The notes under the pieces: model-generated
Database searches by the model: none
Told to the model about the DNA's origin: nothing
What the model saw: the letters and a program-made list of their open reading frames with translations, nothing else
Shown: positions 46,834-53,068 of the stretch, piece by piece
How the letters are laid out: every line of letters begins with the position of its first letter
Position numbering within the stretch: the stretch's first letter is position 1
Program-made: the position numbers and the translations under genes
Source of the DNA: Candidatus Staskawiczbacteria bacterium
Lineage (GTDB): Bacteria; Patescibacteriota; Minisyncoccia; Minisyncoccales; Staskawiczbacteraceae
Reading direction: 5' to 3'
Assembly (NCBI GenBank): GCA_041659225.1
Contig: JBAZYR010000001.1
Location: forward strand, 15,266-79,265
Length of the DNA: 64,000 bases

Positions 46834-47253
46834 TTATTTTATACCTGCGCTAGCATCAATCAGCATCAAGCCGAATGCCTTAGTTACAGTTTTGGTTTTA
46901 AAATCTAGAACTGTTATCAAGCCCCAATCCCCAGCGCTATTCATCAGATCAACTCGTAAATATCTGTTATCTTCTAACTCGAGGCCTTGATAAACCTCTT
47001 GAAAATTCTGACCATTCTGCCCAGCCGAAATACTATCTTTATTCAACAGTGTCTTCTCCCCGATCTTAAAATCGACGTACTTATTCATATACTCGGCACT
47101 ATCAGTATTTGTTTTCAGCAGTTTAATAATTTCGGCATCGGTAGTTTTTAGAATATCTGCAGACATATTCTGTGATGGATTGTTGTAAACAAAAAAATAG
47201 GCCACGACGAACAAAAGAACAAAAAAGCTTATAACTATATTTCGTTTACTCAT
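46834..47253 (-). CDS. Hypothetical membrane-anchored small protein (139 aa)
   Basis: N-terminal TM helix, no motifs. Co-directional with, and tightly spaced to, the upstream secreted-protein genes. Confidence 0.4.
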
Positions 47254-47264
47254 TTTTTAAAGAT

Positions 47265-48002
47265 TTATGACACGACGAAAACAAAATCAAAATTTAAACT
47301 ATTAAACTTGCAGGGGCAAACAACAGCATAATCTCCCCTTTCCCAACCGGTATTATATGTAGCATGATTTGTCTCGCATCGCCAACATTTACCCGCGTTA
47401 CTGACTACGGGAAAGTCTCCACCTCCACCACCAAAATTCAGACAGCTAGCGACATTATTAGTGCCGCTGCAAGTAGTCCCTGTCTGGTTTTTTAATGCAT
47501 CGGCATTCTCGTCCGAATGGTTAACCCCATAATCTTCGGGTATCAAACCGTGGGCCGAGCAAGCATCGGAGCAACTTTCTCCTAGCCCTTTAATCGCTCC
47601 TGGAGTGTGCCCTCCGCACCAGCATTGGTTAGCTCCACTCACGCTATTATAGCGTAAATAGCAAGGGCAAAGCGAGGCTTCTAACCTCACTTTATATTCA
47701 TTCCCGATGGTAAGGCTAACTAAATTAGAAAAAATCTTGTGTTCGTCAAGGTCACCGTCGCCATCATTTTCGCAAACAGTCGAAGTAAGGGTAACACTGT
47801 TTAAAGGAACAGAACCTTCCATCACATACATTATAGTCCCGACAGGAAGACAAAAACTTGAACCATCAGAAATCTTTCGGGCGGTATCAAGCTGCAGACC
47901 GACAAAAACTGAAGTTGCCTCAACTTTCGTGATAGGGATAATAACCAAGACAGTAAAAAAGATAATGAAAGCGGATAAAGAATAAATGTTTTTTGACATC
48001 AC
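47265..48002 (-). CDS. Secreted Cys-rich protein (245 aa), paralogous to the C-terminal approx. 200 aa of the PA14-repeat giant protein
   Basis: Signal peptide. Shared blocks with 48432..52205: (S/P)(F/Y)CLPVGT; C-x-C ... (N/Q)CW ... G(E/Q)SC(S/A)xxCSxxG; C-terminal C(P/A)C...(L/P)NF(D/P)F(V/G)FVV. Confidence 0.6.
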   Translation of the reverse strand: MMSKNIYSLSAFIIFFTVLVIIPITKVEATSVFVGLQLDTARKISDGSSFCLPVGTIMYVMEGSVPLNSVTLTSTVCENDGDGDLDEHKIFSNLVSLTIGNEYKVRLEASLCPCYLRYNSVSGANQCWCGGHTPGAIKGLGESCSDACSAHGLIPEDYGVNHSDENADALKNQTGTTCSGTNNVASCLNFGGGGGDFPVVSNAGKCWRCETNHATYNTGWERGDYAVVCPCKFNSLNFDFVFVVS

Positions 48003-48020
48003 AATTTTGGATTTAAAAAA

Positions 48021-51400: not shown

Positions 51401-52205
51401 ACAATCCGCTATGATTTGTGGGATTTCCGCTTGTACCGCCATACTTTACATAAAGTATTGAATCCCCTAGGGCGCCGCTAGGCACAAAACTTGCCGTGGC
51501 GACACCATCAGTAGTAGTAGCTGATGCGATATCGACTCCATCCGTTTCATTTCTAAAATTTACCGTATCGCCAGTTGTTGGAATTAAATTTCCATCACCA
51601 TCCCTAATAGTAGCCGAAATAGTCATAACCTCTCTGAAATCGGCTTCAGCTTGAACATAAAATGGATTAATCTGAGATACTTGTCCCCCGCCAGAATTAA
51701 TCGTAGCGCAAATCCTATAATCAGAAATCGTAACACATCCTCCGCCTCCGGTTATTAAAAACTCTCCAGCGTTTCCTAGGTCAGCCTCAGCCCGGCCATC
51801 ATTGGTGTTGCCTAAATTATCGGAGGCAAAAACAAAAATCTTATACGCAGCCGGGGTAAAAGAGCTGACATCAACTCGGGCATTATATATACCGTCTCCT
51901 GCAACGTCATCATAGTTTCCTATTTGCCCGTCGTCATAAAGTATTGCACGCGCCATCTGGGCGCCGGTGCTCTTCCTTCTTATTACATAGCCGGCAGATG
52001 AAACGCCAGAAACATCGGTAATATTGGCAGTAACCTTTATTGTGCTATTTTGTGTTATAACCGTATTGGATGCAGCCGTGATGGTTGGCCAAGCATGTCC
52101 AGTGAGCCAGGGATATATTTCAAAACTGGGCTGTACGGCATATATCAAACCAGCTAAAGAAAGAGGGGCTAAAGGAATTAAAAAATATATATATTTATTC
52201 ATCAC
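48432..52205 (-). CDS. Large secreted protein (1257 aa) with three repeats, each a bacterial Ig-like domain followed by a PA14/GLEYA-like domain, plus a Cys-rich C-terminal domain; candidate adhesin
   Basis: Signal peptide MMNKYIYFLIPLAPLSLAGLIYA. Three copies of YFTTIMDV...GxWxFAVDGDDxVELxIDG.VVVGWY......C.C..H......L.AG.HRL.VRH.N..G...V.LYYKSP. An Ig-like unit precedes each copy (…ILYVKYGGTSGNPTNHSGLLADY…). The C-terminus is paralogous to 47265..48002. Confidence 0.7.
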   Translation of the reverse strand: MMNKYIYFLIPLAPLSLAGLIYAVQPSFEIYPWLTGHAWPTITAASNTVITQNSTIKVTANITDVSGVSSAGYVIRRKSTGAQMARAILYDDGQIGNYDDVAGDGIYNARVDVSSFTPAAYKIFVFASDNLGNTNDGRAEADLGNAGEFLITGGGGCVTISDYRICATINSGGGQVSQINPFYVQAEADFREVMTISATIRDGDGNLIPTTGDTVNFRNETDGVDIASATTTDGVATASFVPSGALGDSILYVKYGGTSGNPTNHSGLLADYQYSSLIEKALRTEIRIESPTANNYQNYYFTTIMDVKEAGVWSFAIDGDDGVELEIDGAVVVGWYGYHGRCACFTHTGSVNLTAGLHRLVVRHENDTGGNDVILYYKSPTDASFYFFSTNLGTKAKLYAKLLPDSELTAPGFIASGLDSSILNLGAHTLKASYAGNSSLRISPSETTAPLEIIIGQRPLINPFTVPIETYIDDPINLSATLKYQNGNLISGQPVSFFNVTDNNDMGSAVTNGSGVASLSYLVKHYISDANRGKILYVKYAGDTGNPADHNALINDYTYTTVLDKGTRDAIDLFEGVVPPQDNTNYFFTTIMDVHIPGSWQFAVDGDDAVELQIDDNIVVGWYQHSTCSCTSHSNTITLSAGIHRVTVRHQNVTGNEAAVLYYKSPADGSWKVFGGISLGSGAASIYAELLGDSVIKNLNFIKKGIENTSIGNVSLKATYAGDEGFAIPLLPAESSTATVAVSGGTPTILEQFTVTPSTLNIDGVVSSILSAVLKDGAGAAMVNKIVTFVNQSDIFNIGSSTTSSAGEAHVTYVPKNYLAIDNINKVLFAEYGGTVGHPTDHAGLINDYVPSNLISRSLITDIGENSFGTFPANSNLYFSTILDITDAGQGTWGFAVDGEDAMEVEIDGSVLAGIYGENTYCSCYSHSGTVYLAKGPHRLIVRHEHDAGNAVALLWFQPPGGGWNTFRLSNLPSAMAATYAELPSDINTMKTRSFIENGLTNTSFGNLVLKAVFAGEPAQRIAPSEVTGTIKAKPSKCATQGQKTICSTVTISNTPAPGASIDSIFRIKVDSATDNGSPYCLPVGTKITLKEGTTVLREKTLTAATCAPSSTISLLPSLVITYGHLYTVEISTATECTGFSSGGNCWYLGNRGQSCAGVCSDKGGNKTADCSEEDLNCSAIAHFGIACDECIFDSGEYGSPVAGYWYGYGWYACASAVSPMWRDCSIGYDADDFYFVPICACNGIIPNFPFGFVVGL

Positions 52206-52225
52206 CCTATTTTACGTCTATTTTA

Positions 52226-53068
52226 TCATATTTTCAGCGCTTCGCTACATTTCCCAGCTAAATCGCAAGCCTTTATATCAACATCGTAAGCTCCTTCGGG
52301 GCCCTGCCAAAAATACTTGTATGTTATTGCATTAGGATCACCGGGGATTTCTTTGACCATGGTAAATGTCTGATCGAAAATTGCGCCGTTAGTAGCTGCG
52401 TCATATATCCTAGCCTGAGGATACCCGCCCACAATATCAATGTCATCCCTCGCATCAGAAATTTCAGCCCTAATTTCAATATCTACCCCAGAACTAGAAC
52501 TTATAGGAATAACCTCAGGCCATTCAATTAAAGGCGGGTGATTGTCTGGTGAAACCGCAGAAGCAGCGAAATTTAACTCAATGGCTCTAGTTATCTTTTT
52601 ATGCGCCCCATAGGACTTAATAGTCCCCGTTCCATCTTCATTAATATCAGTTACTACCCTGTATTGGTTATTGTTCACCACAAGGGAAGAATATGTAATT
52701 GTACAATCATTGCAGTCATCGTTCGCACAACGCGGGCCGACTTGTCCGCATACACCAGGGGTGGGATCGCAATCGAAATCCGTACAACTCGTGCAAATAT
52801 CGCAAAGACCGCGCGTTATACCCGCACCCGCCGGTATAACCTTTCTATCAAGAAAAAGCGCTTGCTCGATACCGATATCAGCGACGTATAAAGCTTTAAC
52901 TGATTCTCCCATTTCCCTCACCAATACAATTTCGCCCATTAGTATCACGCCGATCCCAAGAACCACAGCCAAGGATATGCCCATTATGAAAAAAGTAACC
53001 AGCATGGCAACGCCTTTTTCTCCGAATCCGTATGTTAAATTTAATTTTTGATTATTTCTTTTTTTCAT
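52226..53068 (-). CDS. Membrane-anchored protein with a PilX-like N-terminal helix and a Cys-rich knot; putative pilus-associated protein
   Basis: N-terminus EKGVAMLVTFFIMGISLAVVLGIGVILMGE resembles the PilX_N hydrophobic segment. Cys cluster CDICTSCTDFDCDPTPGVCGQVGPRCANDDCNDCT. First gene after the minor pilins, 18 nt upstream of the PA14 protein. Confidence 0.45.
   Translation of the reverse strand: MKKRNNQKLNLTYGFGEKGVAMLVTFFIMGISLAVVLGIGVILMGEIVLVREMGESVKALYVADIGIEQALFLDRKVIPAGAGITRGLCDICTSCTDFDCDPTPGVCGQVGPRCANDDCNDCTITYSSLVVNNNQYRVVTDINEDGTGTIKSYGAHKKITRAIELNFAASAVSPDNHPPLIEWPEVIPISSSSGVDIEIRAEISDARDDIDIVGGYPQARIYDAATNGAIFDQTFTMVKEIPGDPNAITYKYFWQGPEGAYDVDIKACDLAGKCSEALKI

Follow-up and report, generated by a model that had tools for sequence, protein, structure and literature searches.

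The window analysed here is a 64,000-nucleotide stretch from the metagenome-assembled genome (MAG) of Candidatus Staskawiczbacteria, an ultrasmall, Parcubacteria-type member of the Candidate Phyla Radiation (CPR; Patescibacteria). It carries a type IV pilus gene cluster that runs directly into a gene for a large secreted protein with three PA14 modules. All genes between 64 kb and 40 kb of the window lie on the minus strand. The pilus part comprises, in order, pilM, pilN, a pilO-like gene, pilB, pilT, pilC, two major-pilin paralogues, and pilD. It is followed by genes for GspH-like, PilV-like, and GspJ-like minor pilins, for a PilX/GspK-like protein of 280 amino acids (aa), and for the large protein. 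Three small genes, encoding proteins of 121, 245, and 139 aa, come next and are succeeded by ligA, ftsW, and rpoB. The five open reading frames (ORFs) from the PilX-like gene to the 139-aa gene make up the block at positions 46834-53068, and all five are present at the coordinates originally predicted. Each of the encoded proteins has one hydrophobic segment by hydropathy, located at the N terminus. The large protein consists of 1257 aa when read from a GTG codon, or of 1256 aa when translation begins at the ATG at 52202, as in P0001, the identical hypothetical protein of this MAG in public databases.

Structurally, the large protein consists of an N-domain, three repeats, and a cysteine-rich C-domain (Table 1). 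The N-domain spans about 150 aa, is 33% identical to that of the orthologue P0014 on the metagenome contig L008, and also occurs in the orthologues on contigs L013 and L014; its matches to immunoglobulin (Ig) families are weak. The repeats R1 to R3 occupy residues 171-455, 456-745, and 746-1040, approximately 285 aa each, and are 39-43% identical to one another (BLASTP E 1e-56 to 1e-71). As they have no identity with one another at the DNA level, they are old and not an artefact of assembly. Alignment with the uninterrupted Ig module of the orthologues places a PA14 unit of about 190 aa between two strands of the Ig domain of each repeat. The three Ig and PA14-like modules of the original prediction are thus real, except that PA14 is nested inside the Ig domain and does not stand beside it. 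Of the 24 cysteines of the large protein, 15 reside in the C-domain. As neither a C-terminal anchor nor a lipobox nor a further hydrophobic segment is present, the protein needs a partner for its retention. Searches of Pfam and NCBIfam gave no N_methyl or class III signal in the 1257-, 245-, 121-, and 139-aa proteins, and neither a Pfam beta-propeller nor PilY1_homolog_dom is present in the large protein. A word-based homologue search returned three matches for the large protein and, for the 245-aa protein, no sequence other than the query. We also considered whether the PA14 region had been acquired recently by horizontal transfer and saw no clear signal of it: at a window mean of 41.5%, the region has a GC content of 42-46%, and its repeats, as noted, have no DNA identity.

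Table 1 Features of the pilus-adhesin locus (positions in the window)
Feature	Position	Strand	Basis or remark
Large protein, 1257 aa from GTG	48432-52205	minus	ORF
Large protein aa 1-170: Sec-type signal peptide, Ig-like N-domain, Cys hairpin C157-x8-C166	51696-52205	minus	Hydropathy, orthologue comparison
Three repeats of the large protein	49086-51695	minus	Big_3_5-type Ig with nested PA14
Repeat R1	50841-51695	minus	
Repeat R2	49971-50840	minus	
Repeat R3	49086-49970	minus	
Large protein aa 1041-1257 and stop: Cys hairpin and Cys-rich C-domain, 15 Cys	48432-49085	minus	Similarity to 245-aa protein
PilX/GspK-like protein, 280 aa	52226-53068	minus	ORF
121-aa protein	48021-48386	minus	ORF
245-aa protein	47265-48002	minus	ORF
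139-aa protein	46834-47253	minus	ORF
Putative internal promoter: extended -10, TGgTATAAT, perfect match	48401-48409	minus	14 nt before ATG of 121-aa gene, inside 45-nt gap
GspH/FimU-like minor pilin	54151-55122	minus	N_methyl, NCBIfam gspH; PKD-like insertion
PilV/GspI-like minor pilin	53614-54147	minus	N_methyl, NCBIfam PilV
GspJ/PilW-like minor pilin	53069-53623	minus	N_methyl, NCBIfam gspJ

The PA14 identity of the modules was confirmed by Pfam, by a profile search, and by the predicted fold of R1. The whole large protein matches Pfam PA14 (PF07691) with 26.1 bits at a gathering cut-off of 24, and Big_3_5 and Big_1 are likewise found above the Pfam cut-offs. A profile of 14 sequences (alignment A3), comprising the repeat together with its relatives, reaches the PA14 domains of RsgI (E 1e-15) and of the Lap adhesin (E 8e-8). 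The AlphaFold2 (AF2) model of R1 has a predicted local distance difference test score (pLDDT) of 80, exceeding 90 in the PA14 core. Foldseek searches with this model retrieved the PA14 lectins Flo1, Flo5, Epa1, and MpIBP of Marinomonas (probability 1.0, E ~1e-7), and the top 30 matches are all PA14 lectins. The predicted structure therefore allows a firm assignment of the PA14 fold. GLEYA (PF10528), named earlier alongside PA14, drops out for the window protein, with no match at E <= 1 in the large protein or in any single repeat; among the relatives, P0005 alone carries a precomputed GLEYA match. The repeats are a divergent, Ig-nested subfamily of the PA14 superfamily.

In PA14 lectins, a pair of residues known as DcisD holds the sugar-binding Ca2+ (PMC6852018, PMC8092209). 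We located the corresponding position by alignment to the RsgI PA14 domains, together with these two papers; the cis peptide bond itself is not visible in sequence. The position reads DD in R1 (aa 320-321), DD in R2 (aa 607-608), and ED in R3 (aa 900-901), leaving the pair intact in two of the three modules. The modules may bind glycans on the host surface in a Ca2+-dependent manner. The PA14 modules further feature a conserved WYG-H...H...H-E pattern and an HxxCxCxxH loop. The loop, H (or E/Q)-x2-C-x-C-x2-H, lies at residues 339-347, 625-633, and 919-927 of the large protein and is common to the PA14 domains of two other proteins, P0003 and P0008; archaeal PA14 homologues retain the loop histidines and have lost the cysteines. 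Together with further conserved histidines (HR..VRHE), the loop may form a metal site peculiar to this subfamily.

The nearest PA14 relatives include archaeal surface proteins (P0002 and P0007) and PilY1 homologues (P0003 and P0008). The module is 42-49% identical to the domain of the two PilY1 homologues. P0003, from a Thermodesulfovibrionales MAG, comprises 1953 aa, contains PilY1_homolog_dom, and is flanked by N_methyl (minor pilin) genes; P0008 likewise combines PilY1_homolog_dom with PA14. P0011, encoded inside a pilB-pilC-pilin operon, joins a PilX-like N terminus to a PA14 domain that is more distantly related. This locus (L007 5960-11500, in an unrelated 4.29-Mb genome) consists of pilB, pilC, a pilin, and small genes, and P0011 is followed by an 884-aa beta-helix/FG-GAP protein and a gene with a PilN domain, making it another pairing of PA14 with a pilus. 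No paper in which the PA14 domain is mentioned together with either PilY1 or a minor pilin came up in our literature search.

The secreted 245-aa protein is made up entirely of the C-domain, in which a Cys-rich sub-domain is inserted into a beta-sandwich. BLASTP aligns it with the C-domain of the large protein over 118 aa (E 1e-7), and a global alignment extends the similarity to about 215 aa at 32% identity, reaching a shared C-terminal NF.F.FVV strand. The earlier claim of a common Cys-rich domain of about 200 aa thus holds. The C-domain of the large protein is also 38% identical to that of P0014. In the AF2 model (pLDDT 70), the domain forms a beta-sandwich in which the inserted sub-domain is poorly predicted, with a CxxxC motif in a helix and a CxC motif in a strand. 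The invariant residues of the family are the four cysteines of these motifs, one tyrosine, and the phenylalanine of the last strand. An exhaustive HMMER search of 1.84 billion proteins recovered 20 representative clusters, and nearly all members are stand-alone secreted proteins of about 190-280 aa. Neither a fold match, to PilY1 or otherwise, nor a significant match to sequence profiles of the PDB was obtained. The Cys-rich domain family is rare and without a match to a known family. The protein P0029 (239 aa) consists of two tandem CxxxC...CxC sub-domains without the beta-sandwich, and the Cys-rich sub-domain is therefore an autonomous module; the P0029 gene adjoins that of a U-box protein. 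Two convergent C-domain paralogues (212 and 210 aa) are found beside a HEPN/MNT toxin-antitoxin pair at L016 1528-2932.

Both remaining small proteins are anchored in the membrane at their N termini and have no relative in Pfam or the PDB. The 121-aa protein carries a small beta-rich domain behind the anchor. A 121-like gene precedes each stand-alone C-domain gene on L008, L010 (twice), L011, L012, L013, L014, and L015, which suggests a pairwise relationship between the two proteins. On L010 (2-3026), a second pair of 121-like and C-domain genes follows the 139-like gene, suggesting that the pair duplicates as a unit. No member of the block is better conserved than the 139-aa protein, which shows 35-59% identity across six contigs and contains a conserved domain of about 90 aa; on all contigs that extend far enough, ligA directly follows its gene.

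On the upstream side of the large gene, the PilX-like protein shows an N terminus of the uncleaved hydrophobic type without Glu5, a pilin-like core up to about residue 168, and an extra C-terminal Ig-like domain (aa ~170-280). It has no Pfam match and was named for its N-terminal pattern and because its gene comes after the GspJ-like one. Its orthologues measure 252-278 aa on L008, L013, and L014. Within the core, a cysteine cluster at about residues 88-125 (CDICTSCTDFDC...C...C..C..C) is conserved on these three contigs and absent from the 129-aa counterpart on contig L005. When profiles of four sequences each are compared, hhalign aligns the C-terminal domain of the PilX-like protein with the N-domain of the large protein (probability 75%, E 2.5e-5). 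The three minor pilins before it score above the Pfam cut-off for N_methyl, and their orthologues on L008 stand in the same order and are 49-53% identical. The GspH-like gene had been called as a 404-aa ORF (54151-55365) that is over-extended into pilD; since the N_methyl motif begins at residue 82 of this ORF, the start is the ATG at 55122. An insertion of about 105 aa in the GspH-like protein resembles PKD (Pfam E 1e-3) and is absent from the 215-aa L008 orthologue, so that a second predicted tip component has gained a module in this genome.

The genes of the block are tightly packed. From the PilX-like gene to the 139-aa gene the gaps measure 20, 45, 18, and 11 nt, with 8 nt to ligA, and none of these gaps holds a terminator-like site; the region as a whole has 11 such sites where 10.3 are expected by chance. 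The original prediction that the pilus operon continues into the four genes without a strand change or a terminator is borne out. Between 52226 and 52205 there are only 20 nt, which leave no room for a promoter-terminator unit, and the corresponding gap on L008 is 2 nt. The large gene and the PilX-like gene are likely co-transcribed. An extended -10 element before the 121-aa gene may serve as an internal promoter. The window contains eight perfect sites against 3.1 expected; as the element is not kept in the corresponding L008 gap, the evidence for it is weak. Strand continuity by itself says little, because the same tight minus-strand packing runs on into ligA, ftsW, and rpoB.

When comparing the window with related contigs, we observed a conserved frame that carries different heads. 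The full order, from pilD through the minor pilins, the PilX-like protein, a variable protein, and the 121-like, C-domain, and 139-like genes to ligA and ftsW, is present in the window and on L008, whose rpoB and PilC are 85% and 60% identical to those of the window. L008 reads pilB, pilT, pilC, pilin, pilD, three minor pilins, a PilX-like protein of 259 aa, proteins of 477, 142, 246, and 154 aa, ligA, ftsW, and rpoB. The order is also complete from pilD to ftsW on L014; on L013 it extends from pilD to the 139-like gene, the last ORF being cut and not identified. Both of these contigs encode a PilX-like protein of 252-278 aa, the variable protein, a 125-aa protein, a C-domain protein, and a protein of 118-140 aa. 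On the shorter contigs L010, L011, L012, and L015 the order is seen in part. A genome scan anchored on PilC gave two useful relatives, of which L004 ends before the region of the block. On the more distant contig L005 (PilC 40% identical), a PilX-like protein of 129 aa, without the Ig domain, is followed directly by ftsW; this contig has neither the block nor ligA at that place. Where the block is present, the PilX-like protein has the additional Cys cluster and Ig-like domain.

The frame of the variable protein consists of a signal peptide, the N-domain, Cys hairpins, and one Ig module. Nothing follows it on L012 and L013. It is continued by DUF2341 and a further domain on L014, by an unrelated domain of about 190 aa on L015, by the C-domain on L008, and by three PA14-in-Ig units and the C-domain in the window. 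The L008 protein (P0014, 477 aa) accordingly has the same N- and C-domains as the large protein, joined by Cys-hairpin linkers in place of the Ig/PA14 repeats. The conserved unit is therefore the frame of the block and not PA14, and the PA14 triplet is specific to this genome. Of the proposed linkage between pilus genes and PA14, the part that stands is the position: the block adjoins pilus genes on L008, L013, and L014, every related contig that is long enough, and in these closer relatives the genes are not scattered away from pilus loci. The part that does not stand is PA14 itself, which the orthologues lack.

A large Sec-exported non-pilin gene after GspH/I/J/K-like genes occupies a classical position, as in fimU-pilVWX-pilY1 and mshDOP-mshQ (PMC12918778). 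The large gene, directly after the PilX/GspK-like gene and encoding a non-pilin with a type I signal peptide, sits in this PilC/PilY1 slot. Moreover, lectin-like tip proteins of CPR have already been described (PMC11623550). The view that the arrangement is not a described canonical accessory set of type IV pili needs revision. The likeness to PilC/PilY1 extends to the layout of the protein, which joins a conserved part of the presumed docking type to a variable lectin-like part, and the PA14 subtype recurs in the PilY1 homologues. However, the conserved part of the large protein is N-terminal, supplemented by an optional Cys-rich C-domain; the host is a member of the CPR, and three extra conserved small genes lie alongside. 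In Saccharibacteria TM7x, PilX proteins with lectin-like domains and without a PilD signal are known, and deletion of pilX2 lowered host binding (PMC11623550). Like TM7x PilX1 and PilX2 (PMC11623550, PMC12206443), the proteins described here belong to a CPR type IV pilus locus and are proposed tip parts with lectin-like domains and without a PilD-type signal, and host glycans are implicated in both. The lectin-like domain of TM7x (a jelly-roll or beta-propeller) is fused to the PilX pilin itself, whereas in the window the PilX-like protein has an Ig-like domain only, PA14 resides on a separate secreted protein, and a Cys-rich partner family is encoded next to it. Lacking both a beta-propeller and a pilin domain, the large protein is a member of neither the PilY1/MshQ nor the TM7x PilX group.

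With Flo1/Flo5, Epa1, MpIBP, the Lap RTX adhesins, and RsgI, the modules share the PA14 fold, the profile match, and the DcisD pair in two of three modules. They differ from these proteins in their divergence, in the nesting within Ig domains, and in the WYG-H...H...H-E and HxxCxCxxH patterns, and their context is a pilus operon instead of an RTX or glycosylphosphatidylinositol-anchored adhesin. Streptococcus sanguinis PilB and PilC (PMC8179133) offer a further parallel, with adhesive modules on pilus components that are encoded in the pilus operon of an organism without an outer membrane. These two are true pilins with a class III signal peptide, unlike the large protein with its Sec-type signal and no pilin domain.

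We postulate that the block extends, in a lineage-specific manner, the type IV pilus minor-pilin operon of this Parcubacteria-type CPR bacterium. The large protein would be a Sec-exported non-pilin adhesin in the PilY1/MshQ slot, whose conserved frame presents different binding heads in different genomes, here three PA14 lectin-type modules in triplicated Ig domains. Protein-protein contact with the enlarged PilX-like minor pilin could hold it at or near the pilus tip, where the PA14 modules would bind host-surface glycans. The N-domain, with its resemblance to the extra Ig-like domain of the PilX-like protein, is one candidate for docking. Another candidate is the conserved terminal strand of the C-domain, although its packing in the monomer model argues against it. 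Possible partners or assembly factors are the proteins with the Cys-rich C-domain and the two small ones anchored in the membrane. As the gene order matches fimU-pilVWX-pilY1 and mshDOP-mshQ, we interpret the large protein as an adhesin associated with the pilus, resembling PilY1 without being homologous to it and bearing exchangeable lectin heads, an inferred function that we regard as having about an even chance of being correct. Within the original prediction of a pilus-delivered or pilus-associated attachment module, the association gains from the conserved linkage and from the occurrence of the PA14 subtype in PilY1 homologues beside minor pilin genes; 'pilus-delivered' finds no support. 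More tentatively, and with appreciably less confidence, the locus might represent an unrecognised tip assembly of CPR, in which an enlarged PilX/GspK-like pilin recruits a PilY1-unrelated adhesin via a Cys-rich family and two membrane-anchored factors, while heads (PA14, DUF2341, and others) are swapped between lineages and set the host range.

Several observations weigh against the PilY1-like interpretation. Taken singly, the repeats score 19.4 bits, 13.9 bits, and no match against Pfam PA14, all below the cut-off, and the agreement with the Ca2+ site is limited to the DcisD position, the asparagine of calcium-binding loop 2 (CBL2) not being placed. The large protein has no sequence or domain homology to PilC/PilY1, neither the beta-propeller (IPR008707) nor PilY1_homolog_dom. 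PilC/PilY1 docks through its last ~12 residues, which join PilK/PilX as an additional beta-strand (bioRxiv 2026.09.18.752573, PMC12918778), and this plug tail is disordered in the monomer, unlike the last strand of the C-domain, which is packed together with its neighbour into its own sandwich in the monomer model (pLDDT ~90). The similarity between the N-domain and the C-terminal domain of the PilX-like protein is moderate, and the signal disappears with shallower profiles of two sequences each. The co-occurrence of the block with a long PilX-like protein is contrasted with a single genome lacking the block (L005, n=1). The distant C-domain pair on L016 has no 121- or 139-like gene on its contig, whose 3 kb do not suffice to reveal whether pilus genes are nearby. 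Finally, the conserved order also takes in ligA, ftsW, and rpoB, so the neighbourhood may reflect a static compact genome, and conserved order alone is no proof of a pilus role.

This last point leads to the alternative that the block is an independent cassette for a surface or secreted adhesin, anchored via the 121- and 139-aa proteins and neighbouring the pilus genes only by frozen gene order. The equally tight gaps up to rpoB, the putative internal promoter before the 121-aa gene, and the distant C-domain genes without an adjoining 121- or 139-like gene all fit such a cassette, the two small membrane-anchored proteins could tether secreted partners, and PA14 adhesins normally act without pili (PMC8092209). 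It sits less well with the large gene lying 2-20 nt from the PilX-like gene in both genomes examined, with the extra domains of the PilX-like protein appearing exactly where the block is present, with the recurrence of the PA14 subtype in PilY1 homologues, and with the location of the gene in the PilY1/MshQ slot. We consider an independent cassette rather unlikely, yet the most serious competitor of a pilus-associated adhesin. A different division of labour within the pilus would make the C-domain protein the true PilY1-like tip partner, its terminal F-x-F-x-F strand complementing the sheet of the PilX/GspK-like protein, with the variable protein riding on the C-domain protein or on the Ig-like domain of PilX. 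Every cassette contains a C-domain gene, its fusion to the variable protein is optional, the invariant residues besides one tyrosine are two cysteine pairs and the phenylalanine of the last strand, and strand complementation is the established mode of PilC/PilY1 docking. The confident placement of the last two strands within the domain's own sandwich, and the distance of two genes from the PilX-like gene, make this arrangement improbable.

The C-domain could also be read as part of an effector-immunity system, namely as a secreted effector, stabilised by disulfides and directed against the host cell, of which one copy is joined to a targeting protein and the other stands by itself; the small membrane proteins paired with each copy would protect the producer. 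The layout resembles polymorphic-toxin loci: a large protein with the C-domain at its end comes first, and behind it a free C-domain gene stands between two small genes; the additional 121-like and C-domain pair on L010 adds to this impression. A cysteine-stabilised alpha-beta motif (defensin/scorpion toxin), with CxxxC in a helix disulfide-bonded to CxC in a strand, may be considered for the invariant cysteines, which the model puts in a helix and a strand. CxxxC with CxC is the pattern of cysteine-stabilised helix toxins, the Cys-rich sub-domain stands alone in P0029, and weak PDB sequence matches to scorpion toxins appear at E 0.3. These matches are not significant, however, there is no fold match, and no catalytic motif was found. 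Conservation of the C-domain (32-38% identity) around a variable centre is the reverse of what polymorphic toxins show, each free copy is a complete protein that carries a signal peptide itself, and the large protein lacks the C-domain on L012, L013, L014, and L015. An effector-immunity role is the least probable of the explanations considered.

CPR bacteria are thought to live attached to host cells, and pili are leading candidates for finding and binding hosts. To our knowledge, the binding components of CPR pili have not been identified outside Saccharibacteria. The locus provides conserved candidates in Parcubacteria, namely a modular adhesin that occupies the PilY1 position and whose lectin-type heads are lineage-specific, a rare Cys-rich family, and two small membrane proteins. 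A lectin-type tip adhesin on CPR pili is an existing concept; the conserved synteny is the informative part here, and the large protein is a good, still unproven candidate for the host-recognising part of the pilus. If the link to the pilus is true, head swapping would be a sequence-readable marker of host specificity in uncultivated episymbionts, and the design of a large non-pilin after pilX would have been reinvented with unrelated parts.

Two minor observations concern the remainder of the locus. Rfam gave no RNA element in the region, the only matches being three tRNAs elsewhere in the window. The two major-pilin paralogues (150 and 135 aa) are encoded at 55939-56884 on the minus strand, and the number of major-pilin genes varies among close relatives, with one on L008, two on L005, and three on L004.

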